In this document: positions 9,467-64,000 of the stretch, one piece after another
How the letters are laid out: each line of letters starts with the position of its first letter
Numbering within the stretch: position 1 is the first letter of the stretch
DNA from: Candidatus Adlerbacteria bacterium
GTDB lineage: Bacteria; Patescibacteriota; Minisyncoccia; Phycocordibacterales; SBAW01
DNA length: 64,000 nucleotides
NCBI GenBank assembly: GCA_963749085.1
Contig: CAVVLG010000003.1
Location: forward strand, 219,380-283,379
Direction of reading: 5' to 3'
Notes under the pieces: model-generated
The model's database searches: none
What the model was told of the DNA's origin: nothing
What the model saw: only the letters and a program-made list of their open reading frames with translations
Position numbers and translations under genes: made by a program

Positions 9467-9853
9467 GTGGCAGACATAAGTCCTTTTTGCTATGCTCACT
9501 CCAGAGGTTTCAAAGAGGGAGGCGGCTATGGAGCGGAACTACTTTCAGGTTTGTGTTGGCGTGCGCCTATGAGCAAGAGGTCGTGTGACTACTGCAGCAA
9601 GACCCGCGAGGGCGGACTACACGATCCAGATAAACCGCACGACGCGTATTGTTTGAGCGCGGTACGGATCGAAGTTATCTCATTCTGGCGTGCAGGGTGG
9701 ACAGGCAGTCCTTTCTCCGGCAGTACCGAAGAGGCGCAGGACGCATGGCAGAAGGGTGTACTGGCCCAGCGAAAAAAAACGGAGCAATTCTTCGTCGACG
9801 CAAGCACGGAGCAATCCGTGAATCGTTTAATCGAAATAGCACGCGCCCCCTAG
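9467..9853 (+). CDS. Hypothetical Cys-containing ORF; may not be coding
   Basis: GTG start with no clear Shine-Dalgarno. A strong hairpin-T-run terminator lies just after its stop, at 9859-9892. Confidence 0.25.
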   Translation: MADISPFCYAHSRGFKEGGGYGAELLSGLCWRAPMSKRSCDYCSKTREGGLHDPDKPHDAYCLSAVRIEVISFWRAGWTGSPFSGSTEEAQDAWQKGVLAQRKKTEQFFVDASTEQSVNRLIEIARAP

Positions 9854-9858
9854 AGGCT

Positions 9859-9892
9859 GCCCCGTTGGTCTTACCACCGGGGCTTTTATTTT
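9859..9892 (+). terminator. Rho-independent terminator
   Basis: A GCCCCG...CGGGGC stem is followed by TTTTATTTT. Confidence 0.6.
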
Positions 9893-10003
9893 CCGAATGT
9901 TTGTCGTACAGTGGAGCTGTTCTTCATTATTAGTGACTGCCCTTGGATAGGTAGGCCTGCAAACTTTCGTTTGTGACCTAAAATCTGGGGGCACAATTCC
10001 CAC

Positions 10004-12202
10004 ATGCAAAGTAAAAAATTCTCTCTCGAGATCGGCGGCAAGACTATGACCGCGGAGTTCAGCGACTTAGCCGAGCAGGCCAACGGCTCGGTTATTTTGC
10101 ACTACGGCAACACGGCGGTCCTCGCGACTGCGGTCATTTCAAGCCGAACGCGTGACGATATCGATTATTTCCCCCTCACGGTTGATTACGAAGAGCGATT
10201 TTATGCGGCCGGCGCCATTTTGGGTAGCCGTTTCATGCGCCGAGAAGGACGTCCTTCGGATGCCGCGATACTCTCCGGCCGCATCGTCGACCGCACTATC
10301 CGCCCGCTCTTTCCGCAGCACATCCGCAATGAACTGCAGGTTGTCATCACGGTGCTCGCGCTCGACGAGGAGGATCCGGATCAAGTTGCGGTCAACGCCG
10401 CGTCGCTCGCGCTCGCTACTTCTGATATTCCCTGGGGCGGTCCCGTCGCGGCCGTCCGCATCGGTCAGAAGGGAACGGGTACATTCATTATTAACCCCAC
10501 GTACAAGGAACGCGAGGAAGGGAACCTCGACATACTCGCCTGCGGCAAAGACGGCACTATCAACATGATTGAGGTCGGAGCGCACGAAGCGAGTGAGGAT
10601 ACTATCGCCCGGGGATTCACCCAGGCTATTGAAGAGCACGATAACATTCTTGTGTGGCAGAAAAGCATCATTAAGGAGATCGGGAAGCAGAAGCGCGACG
10701 CCGAGAAACCCGAGTTGCCGGTAGTACTTACCGATCTCTATGCATCTGAATTCGCGAACCGGATCACACAGACCGTTTTCTGTGGAGTAGCCGGGAAAGA
10801 CGAGATTCATCGCTTTACTGATGAGTGGCTCGAGCGTTTTAAAGAAAAAGGGGAAGAGAGCCCCGAGTTGAAAGATATCAAAACTGGCGTCGCCAGACGC
10901 TTTATCGAAGACAAGATAGACGAGGAAATACACCGTGGCGCCGTTGAGGACAACAAGCGGGCGGACAACCGGAAGATGAACGAAATCCGTCCCCTCCTCG
11001 CACAGGCAGGGGGCATGTCGCCCATGCTTCACGGATCGGGCATTTTTTACCGCGGCGGCACACATGTCTTTACCGCGCTGACCTTGGGCGGCCCGGGTGA
11101 TAGCCAGATCGTCGACACGATGGAGGAACACGACACCAAAAAAAGATTCCTGCACCACTATAACTTTCCACCGTATTCCTCTGGCGAGGTTGGCCGCATG
11201 GGCGGCATCAACCGCCGCGCCACCGGACACGGCGCGCTTGCCGAGAAGGCGCTCGCGGCCGTCATACCACCCCCGGAAAAATTTCCCTACACCATTCGGC
11301 TGGTGTCGGAGTGCCTGGCGAGCAATGGTTCGACGTCAATGGGCTCCGCCTGCGCCTCCACGCTTGCGCTTATGGACGGCGGAGTACCCATAAAAGCACC
11401 GGTGGCTGGCATTGCTATGGGACTCATGACGCACAAAGGCAAACACAAGGTACTTACTGATATCCAAGGACCTGAGGATGAGTTCGGTGGAATGGATTTC
11501 AAGGTCGCGGGCACGCGCGAAGGCGTGACAGCCATCCAGCTTGATATCAAGCTCGACGGCATTCTGATCGAAGCCCTTACTGAAGCGCTCGCGGGCGCAA
11601 AAATGGCGCGTCTGCAGATCATCGACGTCATAGAAAAAGAAATTCCAGCACCACGCGTCACCATATCCCCGCGCGCGCCTGAAATACTCACGCTCCGAGT
11701 CAAACCTGATCAAATCGGTCTCGTCATCGGCGGGGGCGGCAAAACCATCAACGGCATCAAGGATTTCTCCGGGGTGGAGGATATCACCATTGAGGACGAC
11801 GGTTCGGTATTTATCACCGGCAAAGGTGGCACCGCAACCAAAGCCAAAGAAATGATAGAGGCGCTGGTCAAGGAATATAAGCCCGGCGAAGTGTACGAGG
11901 GCATAGTGAGCAGGCTTATGGATTTCGGCGCGTTCGTGCGCATCGGTCCCGGCAAAGACGCCGAGGGATTGGTGCACGTTTCCGAAGTGGCGCCGTTTCG
12001 CATCGATAAAATTTCAAACGCGGTTTCGATAGGCGAGAAAGTTCGCGTTATGATAAAGGAGATAGACGAGAAGGGGCGGATTAATCTCTCGATTAAAGCC
12101 GCGGACCCGGAGTTTGCCGCCCGCAAGGGCCTCCAGCCGTCATCAAACCCCAATGGACCAAGAACCGAGCGTCCCCAAAGACCTCCCCGCAGAGACTTCT
12201 AG
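10004..12202 (+). CDS. pnp: Polyribonucleotide nucleotidyltransferase (PNPase)
   Basis: Length is 732 aa. Two RNase PH-like domains, a KH domain (GLVIGGGGKTINGI) and an S1 domain (GEVYEGIVSRLMDFGAFVRI) are present. It is downstream of rpsO. Confidence 0.9.
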   Translation: MQSKKFSLEIGGKTMTAEFSDLAEQANGSVILHYGNTAVLATAVISSRTRDDIDYFPLTVDYEERFYAAGAILGSRFMRREGRPSDAAILSGRIVDRTIRPLFPQHIRNELQVVITVLALDEEDPDQVAVNAASLALATSDIPWGGPVAAVRIGQKGTGTFIINPTYKEREEGNLDILACGKDGTINMIEVGAHEASEDTIARGFTQAIEEHDNILVWQKSIIKEIGKQKRDAEKPELPVVLTDLYASEFANRITQTVFCGVAGKDEIHRFTDEWLERFKEKGEESPELKDIKTGVARRFIEDKIDEEIHRGAVEDNKRADNRKMNEIRPLLAQAGGMSPMLHGSGIFYRGGTHVFTALTLGGPGDSQIVDTMEEHDTKKRFLHHYNFPPYSSGEVGRMGGINRRATGHGALAEKALAAVIPPPEKFPYTIRLVSECLASNGSTSMGSACASTLALMDGGVPIKAPVAGIAMGLMTHKGKHKVLTDIQGPEDEFGGMDFKVAGTREGVTAIQLDIKLDGILIEALTEALAGAKMARLQIIDVIEKEIPAPRVTISPRAPEILTLRVKPDQIGLVIGGGGKTINGIKDFSGVEDITIEDDGSVFITGKGGTATKAKEMIEALVKEYKPGEVYEGIVSRLMDFGAFVRIGPGKDAEGLVHVSEVAPFRIDKISNAVSIGEKVRVMIKEIDEKGRINLSIKAADPEFAARKGLQPSSNPNGPRTERPQRPPRRDF

Positions 12203-36032: not shown

Positions 36033-36169
36033 AAGTTTATCCTCAGATGAACTTTGAGTCAAATCGTCCTGTCAAATGTGGTTTATACACACGTTCTCCA
36101 CACCTTATGCACAAAACTGCAAATTTTGACTCGGGGAGAAGAGACGGGTATCCTTGGTTACGACTCGCC

Positions 36170-37513
36170 ATGACAACTACGAAGGAACTCTGGGAAAATG
36201 CACTGGTTGAGCTCGAGCTCACCATATCAAAACCGAATTTCAACACGTGGTTTAAAGATACACACATCGTGAGAGTGGAGGACGGCGCGGTCCACCTCGG
36301 CGTCCCCTCGCAATTCGCCCGCGACTGGCTCTCCACCAAGTTCCACAAGGATATTCTTCGCTCCCTGCGCGGGCTCTCCGAGAACGTGCGGGTGGTTGAG
36401 TACGTTATTTCCCGCAGCGCCAAGAAAACGAGCGAGGAAGTGGCGCTCTCAGTCCCGGCCGCCGCTCAAGAACTTCCCCTTGAGGCGGTACATCCAAAGA
36501 CCAATCTTAATCCGCGCTTCACGCTTGGCTCTTTCGTTGTGGGACCCTTCAATGAACTCGCCCATGCGGCAGCGCAGGCAGTCATACGCAAGCCCGGCAT
36601 CGCTTACAACCCGCTCTTGGTGTACGGGCCCACCGGTTTGGGCAAGACGCACCTCATACAGGCGGTGGGAAATCATTTCCGCATGAGCGCGCCGGAGCGA
36701 AAGGTCTACTACACCACCTCGGAGAAGTTCTCCATGGACTATGTGTCATCGCTTCAGAGCAACAAAACACAAAGCTTCAAGGAAAAATACCGGCAGTACG
36801 ACCTTCTCATCATGGACGACATTCAATTTCTGGCCGGCCGAGACAAAATAAAGGAGGAATTCTTCCATTTGTTCAACTTTTTGCACGACAACAACAAACA
36901 ATTGGTCTTCTCCTCCGACCAGCACCCCAACGTCATCCAAAACCTCGAGGATAGGCTCAAATCGCGCTTTGCAGCGGGCATGGTGGTCTCGGTGACACCG
37001 CCCGATCATCAATCGCGTTTGGCCATTGTGCGTTCAAAAGCGGCCGCTCACGGCGTCATGATGCCAGATGAGGTGCTCGAATACCTGGCTGCCACGGTTG
37101 AGGGCAACGTACGGGAGCTTGAAGGCGCTCTAAACACGCTTCTCATACAGTTTGAGATGCGCGGCAATCCCTTGACGTTGAGCGACGCCAAAACGCTCCT
37201 GCGCGGCGCGGGGGCTGCCACAAAAAAGGCGGTGTCGGTGCAGGAAGTGGTCAAGACTATTGCCAGTTTTTACGGAGTGGAGGAGACGAGTATTTATGAG
37301 AAGACGCGGCGCAAGGAAGTGGTGCGCCCGCGCCAGGTGATTATGTATTTATTGCGCGAGGATTTTCGCATTTCCTTCCCCACCATAGGGGAGAAACTCG
37401 GTGGACGCGATCACACCACCGTCATTCATTCCTGCGAGAAAATACGCAATGACATTCTTGGGGATAGTGTGCTTTCTCAGGAGGTACATCAGATTCGTCT
37501 GATGTTGAAATGA
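36170..37513 (+). CDS. dnaA: Chromosomal replication initiator protein DnaA
   Basis: Walker A is LLVYGPTGLGKTHL. The AAA+ sensor motifs and the C-terminal DNA-binding helix GEKLGGRDHTTVIHSCEKI are present. The ORF opens at 36047; the start is taken at MTTTKELW. Confidence 0.9.
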   Translation: MTTTKELWENALVELELTISKPNFNTWFKDTHIVRVEDGAVHLGVPSQFARDWLSTKFHKDILRSLRGLSENVRVVEYVISRSAKKTSEEVALSVPAAAQELPLEAVHPKTNLNPRFTLGSFVVGPFNELAHAAAQAVIRKPGIAYNPLLVYGPTGLGKTHLIQAVGNHFRMSAPERKVYYTTSEKFSMDYVSSLQSNKTQSFKEKYRQYDLLIMDDIQFLAGRDKIKEEFFHLFNFLHDNNKQLVFSSDQHPNVIQNLEDRLKSRFAAGMVVSVTPPDHQSRLAIVRSKAAAHGVMMPDEVLEYLAATVEGNVRELEGALNTLLIQFEMRGNPLTLSDAKTLLRGAGAATKKAVSVQEVVKTIASFYGVEETSIYEKTRRKEVVRPRQVIMYLLREDFRISFPTIGEKLGGRDHTTVIHSCEKIRNDILGDSVLSQEVHQIRLMLK

Positions 37514-37712
37514 TGGGGAGAAGTGGTAGAAATACGCGGGGATAATTGGGGATAAGAAAAGAGAAACATTCTCTGATGAAGACTTTATGAAACTTACCAC
37601 CACCTTATCAAAAAACGGAGTGTATAAAAAAGCCTTTAATAATAATGGTTTTATCGACTTCTCCCCCTATCCACAGAGCTAATAGTAATAGTAGTTTTTA
37701 TATAGATACTTT

Positions 37713-38810
37713 ATGAAATTTGAATGTACAGCTGAACAGTTATTGGGAGCAGTGGGGACAGCGGTGCGTTTTGTCGAACGACGGCCTAATTTGCCCGTGC
37801 TTCATAGTATTCTCCTTACCGCTGAGGGTGGAAGAGTTACTTTGCGGGCAACGAATCTTGAGTGTGGGGTTGAAATTATGATGCCGGCGAAAATTTCAAG
37901 TGAGGGGAGTGTGGCAGTCCCCGGTGCCGTTCTCTACGGATTTTTATCGAACAACAAAGGGAAAGGTATGTCTATTTCGGTGGTGAATGATTTGTTTAAA
38001 ATTGACGCCGAGCGCGCGTCTGCGTCAATAAAAACGGTGCCGGCGGATGATTTTCCTATTTTACCGAAAGTATCTGCTGAAAAATCATTCACTATCAAAT
38101 CGAACGACCTTATTCGTGCTATTCGGAGCGTTGCATATTGCGCATCGGTGTCGGCAATAAAACCGGAGCTTCAGAGCGTATTACTTTTTGGGGAGGCGGG
38201 GAAAGTAACTGCCGTTGCAACGGATTCATTCCGTTTGGCGGAGAAATCGGCACCACTGCGTGGGGGAGGAAGTGTGCCGCATCTGCTGGTACCCGCACGC
38301 AACGCCGCCGAGCTTATACGTATTCTCGAAGGAAATTCCGGTGACGTTGAGTTGTATTACAACGATCACCAACTCTCGACCCACATCGGCGATGTCTACT
38401 ACACCTCTCGCCTTATTGACGGCGCGTTCCCGAATTATCGCCAGATTCTTCCTAAAAAATTCTCAACTGAAGTTGTAGTATTGCGTGAAGATCTCGCAGG
38501 AGCACTTAAAGCACTTTCAGTTTTCGCTGATAAATTTGCGCAAGTTTCTTTTAGCGTTGAGCCCGCTAAAAAAGCAATTTTACTTTCATCACGTAATCCT
38601 GATGTGGGCGAACAAGTCTCAACCGTCCGCGCGACTATCCAAGGCGATGCGGTCGCGATGAATTTTAATGGTCGCTATCTTGCCGACAGCTTGCAGGCAA
38701 TCTCAGGTGAATCAGTGCGTGTTCAATCCAACGGTCCAGGTAAACCACTTCTCATCAAAGACGCGGCGGACGAATCGTTCTTCTATCTAGCAATGCCGAT
38801 GAATCGGTAG
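37713..38810 (+). CDS. dnaN: DNA polymerase III beta sliding clamp
   Basis: The N-terminus MKFECTAEQLLGAVGTAVRFV...LHSILLTAEGGRVTLRATNLE is present. Length is 365 aa. It is immediately downstream of dnaA. Confidence 0.9.
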   Translation: MKFECTAEQLLGAVGTAVRFVERRPNLPVLHSILLTAEGGRVTLRATNLECGVEIMMPAKISSEGSVAVPGAVLYGFLSNNKGKGMSISVVNDLFKIDAERASASIKTVPADDFPILPKVSAEKSFTIKSNDLIRAIRSVAYCASVSAIKPELQSVLLFGEAGKVTAVATDSFRLAEKSAPLRGGGSVPHLLVPARNAAELIRILEGNSGDVELYYNDHQLSTHIGDVYYTSRLIDGAFPNYRQILPKKFSTEVVVLREDLAGALKALSVFADKFAQVSFSVEPAKKAILLSSRNPDVGEQVSTVRATIQGDAVAMNFNGRYLADSLQAISGESVRVQSNGPGKPLLIKDAADESFFYLAMPMNR

Positions 38811-55652: not shown

Positions 55653-55727
55653 TGGTGCTTCCGGCAGGAATCGAACCTGCATCTCCTCCTTCGGAGGGAG
55701 GTGTTCTATCCATTGGACTACGGAAGC
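55653..55727 (-). tRNA. tRNA-Arg (anticodon CCG); CCA encoded
   Basis: The reverse complement reads GCTTCCGTAGTCCAATGGATAGAACACCTCC-CTCCGAA-GGAGGAGATGCAGGTTCGATTCCTGCCGGAAGCACCA. Confidence 0.75.
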
Positions 55728-55839
55728 AATAACGCACTCACCCTAACATATTTGTGCCCCCTCACGGTAGCGCACCAACCCAGGTGAGGCAACACAATGG
55801 TTTTCCGGCGACCGTCAGTCGTACATCACCGAGGCCTCA

Positions 55840-56285
55840 TGATCGCCTACAAAATGGGATGAATGGGACACTTTGTAGTACTTCGGGATAGTGTCCCATT
55901 TTTGGACTTCCACCAAGCCCCACAAGGACATTCGAGCGATTTTGAGAGCGGGACAGGTGTCCCGTTTGATGTCCCACGGTTGCGAACTGAAAAATGGACA
56001 AATCGGACACAAAGATCGGACGTGTGACTGTCCGATTTCTGGAGTGGAATGTTACAAATGTTACATCTTTTTGACATTTTCCGGGCTGTAACATTCGGGA
56101 AAAACCGAACAAACCGAACACGAAAACACGGATCCTGGTGTGTCCGATTTATGTTCGCAAATGAGACTAATGAGACCTTTAAAAGCACTTTTCGGAGTCT
56201 CATTATCAAATGTCCCCGGCACAAAATGATATGGAATGTAACGCCAAAAGGGCTATTTCGGGGCGTTACATTTTGAGATCAGCAT
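55840..56285. repeat. Non-coding block dense in short inverted and direct repeats (iteron-like)
   Basis: GGGACAC/GTGTCCC, GGGACAGGTGTCCC, AAATCGGACA x3 (one inverted), TGTTACA/TGTAACA x5 and CCGAACA x2 are all read directly. Only short mutually overlapping ORFs are present. Confidence 0.6.
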
Positions 56286-56289
56286 CTCA

Positions 56290-57528
56290 TTACTGCACCA
56301 CTTGCCCCTCAAGGTATTGATGGTTTTTATCCTGAGCATCGAAGGTGCAGCTTGAATCGTTGGCACATTGGCTTGGCACGGGGACAAATGTGGCGACATC
56401 GGCTCCAGGTATGACTTGTCCATCGTAATAGGCCGAATTTTTATCATGAGCATAGCCCACCACAAATCGATAGCCAGCGCCTAGCTCAGGACTATTCCAG
56501 AAAATAGGGTAGTAGGCCTCGAACGAGGTAAGATCTGCGGCAATAGGCTCTATACCGCCGGATTCACCATTTACATAACCATAATAAATGTGGTTGACGT
56601 CTTTATAATAGACAAAATTTATGGCTTCAAATGTTTTAGGATCGACCCCTTGAATTATAGTCATGGGGCTACCACCTAAATCACCCCCATACCAAACGTG
56701 TGTGCTGTCTCTAGCAACATCTGTTTGGGCATCGTAACTAAAGGTTGCAGGATCTGCGCCTGGTAATACGGAAAAGTTATCTATAACTTGATAGCCATAA
56801 GTGTAGATGTGATTTTTATCTTTTGCCAGGCCGGAATCAGGAATAACCGCAAAAGTATTGGGATCCGCGCCCGTGACTAGCTTATCCGCCAAAAACACAT
56901 GCGTTGCATCTTTAGCGAAAGGATAGATTGTCGCATCTGTCGTAAAAGTATTGGGATCCACGCCTGCTAGGATTCCTCCCCCACCAGCAGGGCCTGCACC
57001 GCCAAAGTATGAATAAGCGTTCGATTTGTCTTTTCCGTAACAATATCCGTAATCATCCGATTGGGGATTCAAAACGTCGAGAGAAACAAAGCTCGAAACA
57101 TCTGCGCCAATGCTTTCTGCGCTGCCGTCTCCGAGGTTATAATAGACATTGTTTTTGTCCTTAGAAAAACAATAACCTACCGATTCGGAGCTAGTCGCAA
57201 ATATTTCATATGTCGAAGGATCGACCGTCAGCGGATTGAATTCTCCATCCACGAAAGTCGTTGAGGTGCCTATATCAACATGGATCCACTGCTGCGAAAC
57301 ATTTTGAGCTGGGATGGCGGAAGTATTCTGAGTTGTGGTCGACGCCGTAGACGATTCGCCCGTCGTGCTTGGCATTTGATTTGTGTCGACACTTCGAATC
57401 AGTAAGGCCCAGCCTCCGGCTGCACATACAAGCAACACTGCTAAAACTGCTCCAAGTATCCACCACACTTTTTTACTTGACGGCAGTGGTTGAACCGGAG
57501 GGATTGGTTGCTCAGATGAAGGAGGCAT
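56290..57528 (-). CDS. Secreted DKNYY-repeat family protein
   Basis: An N-terminal TM/signal segment is present. Repeated DKNNVYY, DKSNAYSYF, DKNHIYTYG, DVNHIYYGY, DKNSAYYDG and DKNHQY motifs are present. Confidence 0.65.
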   Translation of the reverse strand: MPPSSEQPIPPVQPLPSSKKVWWILGAVLAVLLVCAAGGWALLIRSVDTNQMPSTTGESSTASTTTQNTSAIPAQNVSQQWIHVDIGTSTTFVDGEFNPLTVDPSTYEIFATSSESVGYCFSKDKNNVYYNLGDGSAESIGADVSSFVSLDVLNPQSDDYGYCYGKDKSNAYSYFGGAGPAGGGGILAGVDPNTFTTDATIYPFAKDATHVFLADKLVTGADPNTFAVIPDSGLAKDKNHIYTYGYQVIDNFSVLPGADPATFSYDAQTDVARDSTHVWYGGDLGGSPMTIIQGVDPKTFEAINFVYYKDVNHIYYGYVNGESGGIEPIAADLTSFEAYYPIFWNSPELGAGYRFVVGYAHDKNSAYYDGQVIPGADVATFVPVPSQCANDSSCTFDAQDKNHQYLEGQVVQ

Positions 57529-57668
57529 AGATGCCTAAAGTGTAGCAGTTTCAAGGCATTTCTGAACTCGGTTACCAACAGCTTACCAACTCGACCCTCC
57601 TGGACACCCACCCCCCTTGCGTCATCCATATACCTGTCGAATTAACAGGGCTTTAACTAGAACCAGTC

Positions 57669-58133
57669 TCAAAAATAATGTTTGAGTAATAGCATGATGC
57701 ACGCGAGCTTCACGAAGGCGGCAAAGTTCTGCAGTTTGTATTCGTAGCGAGTCACGAGCTTTCTCCAGTTGTGCATCCACGCGAACAGCCGCTCAATCTT
57801 CCACCGGCGCTTGTAGGAGCGCAGCGCCCTGCCGTCCTGTGTTGCTCTGCGCACCCGGCCTCTGCGATGCGGTGAAATGAGTTTGATGCGGTATTTGTTC
57901 AGGAGCGTTCCATCCAGCGGATCGGAATCATATGCTCGGTCAGCCGTGAGGCGAAGCGGATTCTGTCGGGTAAATCGCCGGGCAAGCGTGTCTTCAACCA
58001 ACCGGACTTCGCTCGGAGAAGCAGAGGCCACATAGACGGCGACTGGAAGAGAGCCTTCGTCCGCAATCGCCATGATCTTGGTGCCTTTCCCACGCTTCGT
58101 GGGTCCCACGCCAAGACCCCCTTTTTTGCCCCC
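57669..58133 (-). CDS. IS5-family transposase OrfB (DDE domain), expressed by a -1 frameshift from OrfA
   Basis: The DDE region is TADRAYDS...RWKIERLFAWMHNWRKL. The frame is open upstream through the A AAA AAG slippery site at + coordinates 58122-58128. Confidence 0.7.
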   Translation of the reverse strand, partial: GGKKGGLGVGPTKRGKGTKIMAIADEGSLPVAVYVASASPSEVRLVEDTLARRFTRQNPLRLTADRAYDSDPLDGTLLNKYRIKLISPHRRGRVRRATQDGRALRSYKRRWKIERLFAWMHNWRKLVTRYEYKLQNFAAFVKLACIMLLLKHYF

Positions 58134-58441
58134 GCGAAGGTGGCATCGAGAAAGCAGCTCCTGAGCTTGATGCGCCCCCGGTATTCCATGTCCATGGCCA
58201 GGGCTTCGACGATGCGGTCAAAGGCGCCGCTCTCCACCCACTGCTGGAACCTGCGATGGCAGGTCTGGTAGGGCGGGTAGTCTTTCGGCAGGTGCTTCCA
58301 CTGGGCGCCGGTCTTCAGTGCCCAGAGGATACCTTCCAGTATCTTGCGGTCGTCCTGCCGGGGACGGCCGCGGGTTTCCAAACGCTTGAGGGGTGTGACA
58401 AACGGAGCGATGACGCTCCACTGCTCGTTGGTGAGAGGCAT
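57899..58441 (-). CDS. IS5-family transposase OrfA (N-terminal DNA-binding part)
   Basis: The segments WSVIAPFV...GRPRQDDRKILEGILWALKTGAQWKHLP form an IS5/IS4 transposase N-domain. Confidence 0.75.
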   Translation of the reverse strand: MPLTNEQWSVIAPFVTPLKRLETRGRPRQDDRKILEGILWALKTGAQWKHLPKDYPPYQTCHRRFQQWVESGAFDRIVEALAMDMEYRGRIKLRSCFLDATFAGAKKGVLAWDPRSVGKAPRSWRLRTKALFQSPSMWPLLLRAKSGWLKTRLPGDLPDRIRFASRLTEHMIPIRWMERS

Positions 58442-58519
58442 GGGCAGGCAAATTACGGGTAACGCCCTGTGCCTTTAGTCTACAACGGTATTTTTGAGAT
58501 TGGTTCTAGGGTCAAATAT

Positions 58520-59851
58520 ATGGAAGCATCAATAGCAGACGGTTTAGAGCGGATGGGCGTAGCCGTTCCCCAAGAAAAATTAGCGGTGCAAATTAAATAT
58601 TGTCTCTATGCTCGCAAGAGTACCGAGGACGATGAGCATCAAGCACTCTCCATTGATAGCCAGATAAAGGAGATGGGCAGTCTGGCAATACGGGAGAAAT
58701 TAGAAGTAGTCGAAGTGCGCTCGGAGAAACATTCAGCAAAAGCCGCGGGCCAACGACCAGTATTCCAGCAGCTGCTCGCCGATGTACGCGAGGGAAAATT
58801 CAACGGCATCCTTACTTGGGCACCAGATCGTCTGAGTAGAAATGGCGGCGATCTCGGCGTACTGGTGGACTTGATGGATCAAAAATCACTGGTCGAGATA
58901 CGCACGTACACGCAGAAATTTACCAACAACCCGAACGAGAAGTTTCTGCTGATGATACTCGGTTCGCAAGCCAAGCTCGAAAATGACAACAAGAGCCTCA
59001 ACGTCAAGCGCGGATTGAAGGCGCGTGCAGAGATGGGCCTTTGGCCCGGCATTGCGCCGACTGGATACACCAACGACAAACGGTCTGACCACAAGTGCGA
59101 GATTCTAGTCGATCCAATACGTTCTTTGGTGGTTAAGCAAATATTCGAGAAAGTTGGGCGCGACAGAAGGAGCGGCCGGAAAGTATACGCGTGGTTGAAA
59201 TATGACATCAGATTTACGCACCGCTCCGGCAAACCGCTAAGTCTTAGCAATGTCTACAATGTGCTCCGGAACCCCTTCTATTGTGGCATGTTCGAGTTTC
59301 CGCGCGGCTCGGGACAGTGGTACACCGGCAAGCACACACCGCTCATCACCAAAGAGCTGTTTCAACTGGCGCAGGAGAAAATTGCTGAGGACAATCGCCC
59401 GAAAAAGAAATTCCAGGATTTTACCTTCACCAAATTGATGATCTGTGGATACTGTGGCTCAGGCGTCACGGCACAAGAAAAATCAAAAGCGCTTAAAGAC
59501 GGCAGCACAAATTGGTACATCTACTACAGCTGCGACAAATTCAAAGATCATCACTGCAAGAATCCCTATATTCGAGAGGACAATCTCACCACGCTACTGT
59601 TGGAGATAATAGAAACGGTAAGCATAGATGAAATTGGTGCGCGGCATCTCATCGAGCGCGAAGTGAACCGCTACAACAAACTCCGCGCTACGATGGGTCA
59701 CTCCGACAAAGACAAAGCCAAGGACATGGATATCCGTAAATATGCCAAATATCTATTGCAAGAAGGCACGCCGATGGAGAAGCGCGAACTGCTGCAGCAC
59801 CTTCGCAACCGGATCGTGATGAGAGACAAGAAAATATTTCTCGAGAACTAA
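58520..59851 (+). CDS. Large serine recombinase (resolvase/invertase N-domain + recombinase domain + zinc ribbon)
   Basis: The segment [19 protein letters not shown] carries the catalytic Ser region. The recombinase domain includes [11 protein letters not shown]. The zinc ribbon is CGYCGSGV...[12 protein letters not shown]. The ORF opens at 58469 inside the IS right end. Confidence 0.8.
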
Positions 59852-59857
59852 CACGTG

Positions 59858-59890
59858 AAAACGCCGAGCAATTTGCTCGGCGTTTTCGCT
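59858..59890 (+). terminator. Rho-independent terminator after the recombinase
   Basis: A CGCCGAGCA-attt-TGCTCGGCG stem is followed by TTTTCGCT. Confidence 0.6.
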
Positions 59891-60131
59891 CATCGAACCC
59901 TCTCGGTTGCGAACCGGTCTCGACGCATTTCGAGGCCTCATGGACGCATCGATGGGCCGCTGACTGCTGTGCCCCTGTTCGGAACCGACCCTGTGTGGTT
60001 GAGGCCCCACAAGCGTTTTCCGGAGGACTTCAGTGTACCAGAGCTGACCCTGTTCGGTAGGGGTCTCCAAAAGCCAATAAGACCGTTTGCGACTCCCAAA
60101 GGGCGTTTTCGACGCGTCGCAAACGCCCCCG

Positions 60132-63154: not shown

Positions 63155-64000
63155 TCTCAACAAAGAATTTCTCAAGCGGGTCATCGGTGACCCTATGGTG
63201 CGTCAGACCGTGACGCGCGAGGACCTCCTATGGTTTTGGCACGTCTACGTGATACCCAATCTTCCGAAGTTCTACGGCGTCGCGCCGTTTCAGATTGAGA
63301 TAATGGACATACTGCAGAATGCGGCGAATAAGTTCTTCGTGCTCGAAGGATTTCGCGGATCCTCCAAAAGCTCAATCGCCAACCACGCCTTCACCGTATG
63401 GTCCATCGTCGGTAAACCACAGACCAAATTTATTATTATCATCGCCGGCACGGCTGAACTGGCGCGGCAGCACCTCAACAATATAAAGGCGCTCATGGCG
63501 AGCGAGCCTCTGCGCTCGGACATGGGTCCGTTTCAAATTCCCGAAGGCGAGTGGCGGGCCAACGCGATCGACATCCCAAAATACAACGCGCGAGTCATTT
63601 CCGTGTCGGTTGAGCAAAATGTCAGAGGGTTGTTGCATAACAACATCAGGCCGCAAATCGTGATCCTCGACGACCTCGAGAACATCAACACCGCGCTCTC
63701 GGAGGACGTGCGTCATCGTACGTACCAAACTTTCAACTCCGACATCAGGCCGGTCGGCGATCTCGACACTCGCTTTATCGTCATCGGAACCAGATTGTGG
63801 GAAGAAAGTTTGATCATGCGTTTTAAAAACGACATTGAGAACGGCAGGCGCAACGGCATCTTCCGCTCCTACCCCATCATCAACGAGCGGGATGAGCCTC
63901 TGTGGCCGGATAAATTTCCAACAAAGGAGGATGTTGAACAACTGCGCAAGGACATTGGCGACGAAGCCGCGTGGGCGCGGGAGTTTATGCTCCAGATTGT
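63141..64000 (+). CDS. Phage terminase large subunit, N-terminal ATPase domain (partial; runs off the window so it is absent from the ORF track)
   Basis: The frame is open from the ATG at 63141 to the window end. The Walker A-like segment is VLEGFRGSSKSS. The Walker B-like segment is IVILDDLEN. The antisense ORF 63372-63941 is probably a shadow. Confidence 0.55.
   Translation, partial: MNPSNLNKEFLKRVIGDPMVRQTVTREDLLWFWHVYVIPNLPKFYGVAPFQIEIMDILQNAANKFFVLEGFRGSSKSSIANHAFTVWSIVGKPQTKFIIIIAGTAELARQHLNNIKALMASEPLRSDMGPFQIPEGEWRANAIDIPKYNARVISVSVEQNVRGLLHNNIRPQIVILDDLENINTALSEDVRHRTYQTFNSDIRPVGDLDTRFIVIGTRLWEESLIMRFKNDIENGRRNGIFRSYPIINERDEPLWPDKFPTKEDVEQLRKDIGDEAAWAREFMLQI

Follow-up and report, generated by a model that had tools for sequence, protein, structure and literature searches.

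Integrative elements which encode a large serine recombinase (LSR) and insert at tRNA genes are already known, and the tycheposons of Prochlorococcus are reportedly small integrative elements that target tRNA genes and have no transfer genes. For clustered short repeats the closest described systems are iteron origins and operators, and our comparison set comprised the lambda origin within gene O, the Rep iterons of pPS10, R6K and P1 with their inverted-repeat operator, and the ori and crr octamers of P4. Here we analyze a repeat block in a 64,000-nucleotide stretch of a Candidatus Adlerbacteria genome (contig CAVVLG010000003.1, positions 219,380 to 283,379; referred to below as the window). 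The block lies in an intergenic stretch of 562 bp (55728-56289) between tRNA-Arg(CCG) and a DKNYY family gene, the flanks that the initial annotation of this DNA had recognized; both are on the - strand. That annotation found nothing in the window to explain the block. We find that the block is one arm, the left, of an LSR integrative element of 4.2 kb, which reaches from 55754 to 59975, and that it is organized as an array of conserved modules which are tentatively best explained as protein-binding sites.

Searches of the literature, which were limited in coverage, returned no description of a minimal one-gene-plus-cargo LSR cassette family in Patescibacteria, nor of a conserved heterogeneous tripartite repeat array in LSR elements.

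Modular structure of the repeat block

The repeat content of 55728-56289 is far above that expected from the window's own density. There are 11 copies of GGACA/TGTCC (0.76 expected), in line with the ten or more cores that had been reported, five of SGGACAC (0.11 expected), three of ATGAGAC (0.08 expected) and three of AAATCGGACA (0.03 expected), the last of which occurs nowhere else in the 64 kb. The threefold AAATCGGACA and the twofold CCGAACA had both been counted correctly. TGTTACA/TGTAACA had been given as occurring five times: three of these copies are exact, and the other two are the 6/7 variants TGTAACG and CGTTACA. A repeat finder also recovered the palindromes listed previously, namely AATGGGACACT-N17-AGTGTCCCATT, GGGACAGGTGTCCC, a GAGAC pair and AATGTAACGCC-N16-GGCGTTACATT. 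With up to one mismatch, six of the nine window matches to AATSGGACAC fall in the block, the total for the window being at chance level.

Underlying these repeats is a regular grammar that the initial annotation had overlooked: the block consists of six or seven tripartite modules, each formed by two tandem 9-10-mers and an inverted copy which follows the second of them after 16-19 nt. U2 is exceptional in having three tandem direct copies, and U5 (core GTAACG) is an inverted pair only. The direct repeats take the form AA(T)-NNN-ACA(C), with a core that differs from module to module: GGGACA in U1, CGGACA in U2, GTTACA in U3, CGAACA in U6 and GAGAC in U4. Half-sites within a module are ~27-29 bp and ~36-38 bp apart, and the polarity is constant, as the direct copies precede the inverted copy on the + strand in all modules of all elements described below. 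The modules are absent from the rest of the 64-kb window, and hardly any occur in ~1 Mb of related Patescibacteria loci.

An LSR integrative element contains the block

The element is delimited by a 7-bp direct repeat, GTGCCCC (Table 1). Without an IS5 insertion it measures 3.4 kb and consists of the block, a cargo gene, a divergent promoter region, the LSR gene, a terminator and a right arm; the LSR is its only conserved protein. The deduced att arms read GGGCYGCTGACTGCT, GTGCCCC and CTCACGGTAGCGCACC in succession. A 17-bp direct repeat (D6) had been considered as the element ends; it was dropped in favor of GTGCCCC after alignment of the sister elements, and corresponds to the internal motif M2.

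The sister elements were found in two ways. A pattern search with U2 plus U3 matched one metagenome contig (L240), which carries an LSR of 89% amino acid identity, an unrelated cargo gene (PG_binding_1), a homologous block and, next to the block, tRNA-Pro(CGG). The contigs of the closest LSR relatives then gave three further blocks: that of L241 is colinear with the window and 83% identical over 529 nt, that of L244 has a permuted module order, and that of L253 is a partial copy. The conservation of the block that the initial annotation had proposed to check is thus observed, with its repeat structure, in four other contigs. The LSRs beside these blocks are 86-89% identical, and the range is 85-89% at the amino acid level when L245 and L246 are included with L240, L241, L244 and L253. 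Homology on the block side starts at G(G)TGCCCYCTCACGGTAGCGCACC in all copies, and on the LSR side it ends at GGGCYGCTGACTGCT followed by GTGC.

The LSR-side end, whose right arm is conserved in six elements, abuts the 3' ends of differing tRNA genes (Val-CAC, Arg-CCT, Arg-TCT and Ile-TAT). In the more distant L242, from a 77%-identical lineage, the right arm abuts a Gly-TCC tRNA. In the window it abuts merely a remnant that resembles a tRNA 3' end, not an intact tRNA.

No two copies have the same cargo gene; its product is in every case membrane-anchored or secreted, and its transcription invariably runs towards the block. The swapped segment extends exactly from the block to the conserved promoter region, and this divergent intergenic region is 82-90% identical in L240, L241, L242, L244 and L253. 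The modules themselves have been rearranged: U2-U3 come before U6-U4-U5 in the window and L241 and after them in L240 and L244, and L240, L244 and L253 contain an extra module, U7, with a GAGACA core.

The chromosomal neighborhood was compared in the 80 closest species representatives, at their Mur-ligase loci. All keep the order Mur ligase - RuvA - S20 - tRNA-Arg(CCG), and none has anything similar to the block upstream of tRNA-Arg(CCG), a position usually taken by tRNA-Arg(GCG) or small variable ORFs. Because syntenic relatives have no such block, it must have arrived with something else. Judging from the occurrence of the same element in different genomic contexts and its absence from syntenic relatives, the element is mobile.

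The LSR family is expanded in Patescibacteria, with 7998 of 8000 scored candidates at E <= 1e-60, dozens of them with an identity of at least 80%. Near-identical LSRs (loci L038, L240-L246 and L253) are found at the 3' ends of Val, Arg (twice), Ile, Gly and Ser tRNA genes, so the recombinase seems to recognize a feature common to tRNA genes.

Two of the sister contigs contain further traces of recombination-related sequence, and a third a retroelement signature. L245, whose element has no block, has a truncated second LSR copy (212-630, the first ~140 codons) upstream of its cargo genes, which suggests tandem elements followed by deletion. By the left end of the element in L244 are two direct repeats of ~100 bp (2220-2510) with T-arm-like fragments (agggattcgaac), possibly scars of earlier integrations. 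L241 has a diversity-generating retroelement signature (bAvd + RVT_1; 9736-11117) outside the sister element and 3.4 kb from it.

Two motifs recur in the element of the window and are conserved in its sisters. M1, CYCWCGGTWGCGMACC, has three copies in direct orientation (55761-55776, 55973-55988 and 59900-59915), and M2, CGAGGCCTCATGRWCGC, has two (55830-55846 and 59931-59947). Both may be accessory recombination sites. The leader that precedes the modules holds one copy of each, M1 as CTCACGGTAGCGCACC (a putative P' arm) and M2 as CGAGGCCTCATGATCGC, together with a CCTCAC/GTGAGG inverted repeat. The second part of P0, the M1-like GATGTCCCACGGTTGCGAAC, is invariant in four elements, and the palindrome before it is decayed in L241.

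Table 1 Features of the integrative element and its left flank (window coordinates).
Feature	Position	Strand	Description
tRNA-Arg(CCG)	55653-55727	-	Left flank of block
Left GTGCCCC	55754-55760		Putative att crossover core, left boundary; homology of L240, L241 and L244 starts here
Conserved leader	55761-55850	+	Colinear, 73-83% identical in four elements
Module U1	55852-55901	+	AAATGGGATG AATGGGACAC - 19 nt - GTGTCCCATTT
P0	55948-55988	+	Palindrome GGGACAGGTGTCCC, then M1-like GATGTCCCACGGTTGCGAAC
Module U2	55993-56040	+	AATGGACA AATCGGACAC AAAGATCGGAC - 7 nt - TGTCCGATTTCT; three direct copies, one inverted
Module U3	56047-56097	+	GAATGTTACA AATGTTACAT - 19 nt - CTGTAACATTCG; most AT-rich part of block
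Module U6	56101-56162	+	AAAACCGAACA AACCGAACAC ... ATGTTCGCAAAT; spacer contains a further GTGTCCGATTT (56140-56150)
Module U4	56159-56205	+	AAATGAGACT AATGAGACC - 18 nt - AGTCTCATTA
Module U5	56233-56274	+	AATGTAACGCC - 16 nt - GGCGTTACATT; immediately past the cargo-gene stop codon
Cargo gene	56290-57528	-	DKNYY family, Pfam PF13644 (E = 1.7e-28); N-terminal membrane anchor; transcribed towards block
Cargo-LSR divergent intergenic region	57529-57656		Palindrome CCTGTCGAATTAACAGG; interrupted by insertion sequence
IS5-family insertion sequence	57657-58509	-	Terminal inverted repeats of 26 bp (57657-57682 / 58484-58509); Pfam matches to DUF4096 and DDE_Tnp_1
LSR	58520-59851	+	Resolvase PF00239, Recombinase PF07508, Zn_ribbon_recom PF13408; PHROG 95 'integrase'
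Intrinsic terminator	59857-59887		Canonical, bidirectional; 15-bp G+C-rich stem, 1-nt loop, A/T runs on either side
Right arm	59894-59975	+	M1-like CTCTCGGTTGCGAACC (59900-59915), M2 CGAGGCCTCATGGACGC (59931-59947), ...GGGCCGCTGACTGCT, GTGCCCC (59969-59975)

Conservation of the modules

The divergence of the LSR genes provides a scale for that of the block. Their four-fold degenerate sites are 37-53% identical between elements, which is near saturation, and codon positions 1 and 2 are 89-94% identical. The repeat arms of the modules are 86-97% identical between elements (97% for U2), and the spacers 44-70%. The array is constrained to the same degree as codon positions 1 and 2 of the LSR gene, and it matches no described element.

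The spacers are constrained in length to within 1 nt in every module type. Listed by copy, they measure 19, 19, 19 and 19 nt in U1, with a sequence only ~44% identical over the four elements; 18, 18, 18 and 18 nt in U2; 19, 19, 18 and 18 nt in U3; 18, 18, 17, 18 and 18 nt in U4; and 16 nt in four copies of U5. An inverted copy shares a perfect run of 9.3 nt on average with the direct copies of its own module, compared to 4.2 nt with those of other module types. A few of the changes in the arms are compensated: the U4 arms AATGAGACT/AGTCTCATT have become AATGAGACC/GGTCTCATT in L241 (..GACC / GGTC..) and TCTGAGACT/AGTCTCAGA in L240, the second direct and the inverted copy of U6 read AAAGCGAACAC / GTGTTCGCTTT in L244, and arm changes at the U1 flank are likewise compensatory.

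From these alignments we infer that the block is functional and under selection. Conserved arms at a fixed spacing, with spacers that drift, point to sequence-specific, spacing-dependent recognition of double-stranded DNA rather than to a global RNA fold, and a module order which is permuted with the modules intact implies that they act as autonomous units.

Module counterparts in phages

BLAST of the block against deposited phages and plasmids returned no meaningful match, so the likeness to known phage or plasmid sequences that had been suggested does not extend to overall similarity. Counterparts of the individual modules are found in viral contigs when they are searched for as patterns. 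The U1-type arrangement AATGGGACAC-N19-GTGTCCCATT is present in 24 IMG/VR contigs. In 18-19 of these the site belongs to a symmetric array of six half-sites, which lies within the last ~110 codons of a gene for an ~800-aa Prim-Pol/PriCT_2/AAA_25 helicase. The 10-mers of the phages are read in different frames (VSH, CPI, NGT, WDT and MGH), which indicates constraint at the DNA level.

Other modules have counterparts of the same kind. Arrays of ATGTTACA adjoin Prim-Pol/DUF3987, VapE and Lin1244_N replication genes, and a CGGACAC array lies inside an HTH_36 gene. For U3, viral contig L203 has AAATGTTACAAATGTTAC-N16-TGTAACATTT twice, in mirrored arrangement, between early (AAA/MCM-like, SNF2) and late (terminase) genes. 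Viral contig L235 has TGTCCGAT...ATCGGACAATCGGACA-N15-TGTCCGAT after a Cro/CI-type gene, and its ATCGGACA site, with direct and inverted copies, is analogous to U2. L256 contains AAATGAGACAAATGAGACAC-N19-GTGTCTCATT, which is essentially module U7, and counterparts of U4 are found in L256 and in L255/L259. The modules of L203, L235 and L256 are near-identical to those of the block, with two direct copies and one inverted copy.

As controls, an 18-base CGGACAC pattern with 17 gap options gave 13 mostly single-site matches, which we regard as background, and the fixed 18-base block motif GATGTCCCACGGNNGCGAAC gave three unrelated coding matches in IMG/VR, which is chance level.

The phages with the AATGGGACAC/GTGTCCCATT array (IMG/VR loci L082-L105, for example L097 4355-6769) form a widespread aquatic family with genomes of ~40-45 kb. 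CGCGCGGGGA/TCCCCGCGCG border this array, which lies within the 3' end of the gene for the Prim-Pol/helicase and appears to be an origin inside an initiator gene.

Candidate functions of the array

Several simple identities were considered for the block and set aside. It is not a protein-coding gene or pseudogene: the ORFs are short and mutually overlapping, as had been stated, the longest (125 aa) has no Pfam match, each of the four homologues has stops in every frame and the module order is permuted, so that no coding homolog with a frame open in all four copies spans it. Nor is it a chromosomal origin: there is no switch in GC skew and no DnaA box in the block, and dnaA-dnaN with canonical boxes is located at 36-39 kb. 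A decayed Prim-Pol helicase gene was rejected when tblastx of the window against the viral loci matched only PolA at ~49 kb. The covariance scan with Rfam that had been proposed, in gathering and E-value modes (E <= 10), returned only tRNAs from the block and window and nothing better than E = 1.2 in 55728-56289 (a snoRNA model, at chance level). This also eliminates a decayed tRNA as the source of the block, a T-arm/acceptor-like remnant being present only at the right flank of the element. Finally, an iteron-type origin with one 17-22-bp iteron at helical phasing does not describe the block, which has units of 9-10 bp with five to seven cores; the block also falls outside the classical iteron origins because it has no rep gene, no DnaA boxes and no clear unwinding element. 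The iteron or operator likeness noted in the initial annotation is borne out by the module grammar and by near-identical modules in or beside the replication genes of phage contigs, while the likeness to a plasmid or phage origin is not supported for an origin of the classical type, given the missing rep gene and DnaA box and the modest AT-rich stretch.

Our preferred explanation, to which we would give slightly less than an even chance, is that the modules are iteron- or operator-type protein-binding sites which act in cis for the element and whose binders are supplied in trans. The large serine recombinase would mobilize the element, and the modules would most likely be independent, sequence-specific binding sites on double-stranded DNA. 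Their binders would probably come from co-resident phages, or possibly from the host, since the element encodes only a recombinase and cargo and the same modules are found at phage replication and control regions. For the element, whether excised or resident, the array would probably be a region of replication, maintenance or control; the excised circle could be replicated, control exerted, or phage proteins titrated by a decoy.

A number of observations weigh against this explanation. An all-against-all BLASTP comparison found no protein family common to the array-bearing phage loci and the element, and none common to phage loci with different arrays. Five to seven specificities would need several trans factors, which is much for a host with a ~1-Mb genome. 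The rearranged element of L245 and the 77%-identical lineage of L242 have no block, so the block is not indispensable to every element of the recombinase family. All four U1 copies retain only GGGACAC-N19-GTGTCCC rather than the complete 10-mers, and the match of U1 to the Prim-Pol phage family could therefore be convergence; going by source names, that family consists of aquatic uncultured phages with no visible link to Patescibacteria. The hallmarks of an origin are also scarce: the block has no TTATCCACA DnaA box even at <= 2 mismatches, its richest 30-nt window is a modest 77% AT (top 0.8% of the window), and there is no primase, helicase or Rep within 14 kb, its neighbors being the tRNA-Arg, DKNYY, IS5, LSR, methylase and terminase genes. 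Finally, the compensatory changes in the arms of U4, U6 and the U1 flank are equally expected if hairpin formation matters, and this compensation keeps hairpin formation in play as the selected property.

A more specific version of the binding-site explanation, which we think decidedly doubtful, is that each module is where the replication initiator or regulator of a different phage docks, so that the element carries a 'library' of phage sites. This would explain the conserved yet distinct cores, the autonomous, shuffled modules and the near-identical modules in unrelated phages. If true, any helper phage that infects could replicate or induce the element, which would then be a minimalist multi-helper satellite; in another version, the initiators would be titrated or handcuffed and the host protected, in an origin-mimic, incompatibility-type defense.

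The compensated arms are also what a structured RNA would display, whether it formed the 3' UTR of the cargo transcript (- strand, continuing in the direction of the host tRNA) or a non-coding RNA in its own right, with modules that are hairpins with a spare single-stranded arm copy and serve to stabilize or process the transcript or to pair with other RNAs. The cargo gene, the block and the host tRNA downstream of it share one direction, in L240 as well as in the window, no canonical terminator lies between the cargo stop codon and the block, and the fold prediction that had been proposed gives both strands a better fold than shuffled sequence (z = -3.6 for the + strand and -6.5 for the - strand). 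We consider an RNA role unlikely but of some weight, because no Rfam model matches even at E <= 10, arm mismatches have no consistent G-U strand bias in alignments read by eye, and stems under no demand but pairing would be expected to drift through compensated changes, instead of remaining 86-97% identical at neutral saturation. Fixed loops of 16-19 nt are in addition unusual for RNA hairpins, the permuted order leaves no global fold, and the phage versions of the modules sit in coding sequence or between divergent gene blocks. Single-stranded DNA could form the same hairpins, and dense hairpins of constant polarity in every module and element would suit a single-strand origin, priming signal or oriT-like region, should the element at some stage be single-stranded, for example during uptake, transfer or rolling-circle copying. 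Genes for its own transfer or replication are absent from the element, the window encodes a T2SSE-type secretion/pilus ATPase, and Patescibacteria rely on DNA uptake machinery. This appears very unlikely to us: no relaxase, HUH Rep or nick-site motif was found, it is the arm sequences rather than the structure that are conserved, LSRs act on double-stranded DNA, and the phage counterparts include sites within the coding sequence of double-stranded DNA phages. Stacked terminator-like hairpins might instead form a transcriptional insulator which blocks host read-through that would otherwise enter the element and drive the recombinase, or cargo transcription into host tRNA genes. On the + strand, which starts at the host flank and crosses the cargo gene in antisense before it reaches the LSR gene, the inverted arms all end in ATT(T) followed by T-rich sequence, and there are four terminator-like sites versus 0.8 expected. 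The element's own terminator (59857-59887), with its 15-bp G+C-rich stem and 1-nt loop, makes this explanation very improbable, if anything a shade more so than single-stranded hairpins: the modules have AT-rich arms of 9-11 bp and loops of 16-19 nt, and an insulator leaves the tandem direct copies and the conserved core of each module unexplained.

Proteins other than phage initiators could be the binders, notably the element's own LSR or a resolvase-type enzyme, in which case the modules would be accessory or pseudo-att sites that organize the synapse in a res-like manner, set directionality or act as landing pads for cargo exchange. The LSR is the sole conserved protein of the element, the block is ~100 bp from the att core and shares M1-like and M2 motifs with the att arms, cargo genes have been exchanged exactly in the interval from the block to the conserved promoter region, and the half-site distances of ~29 and ~38 bp fall within the size range of LSR attB and attP sites. 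TGTCCGAT presumably resembles the gamma-delta/Tn3 resolvase half-site, for which, as for the module sequences, the literature yielded nothing usable; the orientation of TGTC relative to the dyad is presumably the reverse of that in resolvase site I, which counts against such an enzyme. Moreover, the deduced att arms lack the module 9-mers, conservation of five to seven distinct cores is not expected from one recombinase, and the phage counterparts accompany replication genes, not recombinases. Recombinase sites are in our estimate quite unlikely. That the block is a non-functional relic, made of degenerate pieces of att sites or tRNAs, or of slippage products whose symmetry is maintained by hairpin-mediated gene conversion, is extremely unlikely. 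GTGTCCC does resemble the att core GTGCCCC, the M1-like motif recurs within the block and the module order suggests past duplication and deletion; against this, the arms are 86-97% identical where four-fold sites are 37-53% identical, spacer lengths are fixed, and the same modules recur in unrelated phages.

Other parts of the element and its surroundings

The IS5-family transposase is frameshifted into two overlapping ORFs (DUF4096, 57899-58441; DDE_Tnp_1, 57669-58109). The insertion sequence is missing from every sister element and is therefore a later, secondary insertion and not ancestral. It is directly upstream of the LSR start codon, the true start being ATG 58520, and separates the LSR from the conserved promoter region, which may have silenced the recombinase. 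The terminator after the LSR gene is conserved in the sister elements. Exact look-ups of one methylase and two candidate LSR starts returned no record. Logan contigs break at the insertion sequence and at 59947/59948, which is at most suggestive of excision or integration, and one of them, L239, has its first position immediately behind the M2 copy of the right arm.

The right flank of the element, 59976-60048, resembles the T-arm and acceptor 3' strand of a tRNA (AGGGTCGGTTCCGAACAGGGGCAC), and the remainder of it is not tRNA-like. This remnant probably belongs to a neighboring phage-like island; it has the look of a displaced or borrowed tRNA 3' fragment, which suggests tandem integration of two elements. 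The tRNA-Arg(GCG) that relatives have ahead of tRNA-Arg(CCG) is absent from the window. The phage-like remnant itself extends from 60132 to the end of the window at 64000 and continues in L239 (equivalent to window positions 59948-69710). It encodes a 119-aa ORF, an N6/N4 methylase with a fused ParB-like N-terminus, another methylase, TerS and TerL; beyond these lie minus-strand genes without known function, among them one with a weak TnsA-like match. Neither a replication gene nor a tRNA was found in the remnant.

Elsewhere in the window, dnaA (36047-37513) and dnaN (37713-38810) are accompanied by clusters of canonical DnaA boxes at 36037-36113 and 37547-37675, which probably represent the chromosomal oriC. 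Two perfect DnaA boxes 20 bp apart are also found between tRNA-Pro and tRNA-Gly (2433-2461), and TTATCCACA with <= 1 mismatch occurs 24 times in the window versus 11 expected.

Comparison with known systems

Patescibacteria have tiny genomes and poorly known routes of gene exchange, and the recombinase of this element has thousands of relatives among them. Its close relatives are minimal cassettes that move between tRNA genes, made of the recombinase, an exchangeable surface or membrane gene and, in this lineage, the repeat array. Even conservatively, the annotation changes from an orphan intergenic repeat block to a cis-acting arm that belongs to a defined mobile element whose ends are mapped. 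If the modules do dock phage proteins, the cassette would connect phage infection of these episymbionts with mobile DNA and with the turnover of surface proteins, and would provide ready-made pairs of site and protein to look for.

The array has features of several other repeat systems without being any of them. As is the case with Tn3/gamma-delta res and hix/gix sites, it comprises several inverted-repeat sites with differing spacers near a serine-recombinase crossover site; unlike res sites, it is associated with a large serine recombinase and has 16-19-bp spacers, tandem direct copies and differing cores. A Tn3-family res site in the strict sense (three subsites, one 12-bp motif, 25-34 bp) was rejected, there being no small resolvase and the sites measuring 36-50 bp. 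Like integron attC sites, each module has its own sequence with internal complementarity and lies near exchangeable ORFs and a recombinase. In contrast to attC, the modules are stacked together rather than distributed one per cassette, and their arm sequences are conserved between elements; an attC array was also rejected on the grounds that there is no IntI tyrosine recombinase and that the arms do not fit R''/R' RYYYAAC/GTTRRRY. The modules share with REP/BIME repeats the form of ~40-nt imperfect palindromes clustered after a gene; this identity was discarded because they are not dispersed, being confined to the block within the window, and no RAYT gene was seen.

Iteron origins, too, have clustered short direct and inverted repeats with fixed spacing and free spacer sequence, and the phage counterparts of the modules lie in or beside initiator genes, as the lambda origin lies in gene O. 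The block differs from them in its 9-10-bp units, arranged as tandem pairs plus an inverted copy instead of 17-22-bp iterons at helical phasing, in mixing five to seven repeat sequences in one array, and in having no rep gene, DnaA box or clear unwinding element.

As a whole, the element is most readily compared to tycheposons, PICI-like satellites and serine-recombinase integrative mobilizable elements, with which it shares a recombinase at one end, insertion at tRNA 3' ends, swappable cargo, very small size and functions supplied in trans. It is distinguished from them by having the LSR as its one conserved gene, with no primase, rep, alpA, terS module, relaxase or oriT signature, by a conserved non-coding array that has no described equivalent, and by its Patescibacteria host.

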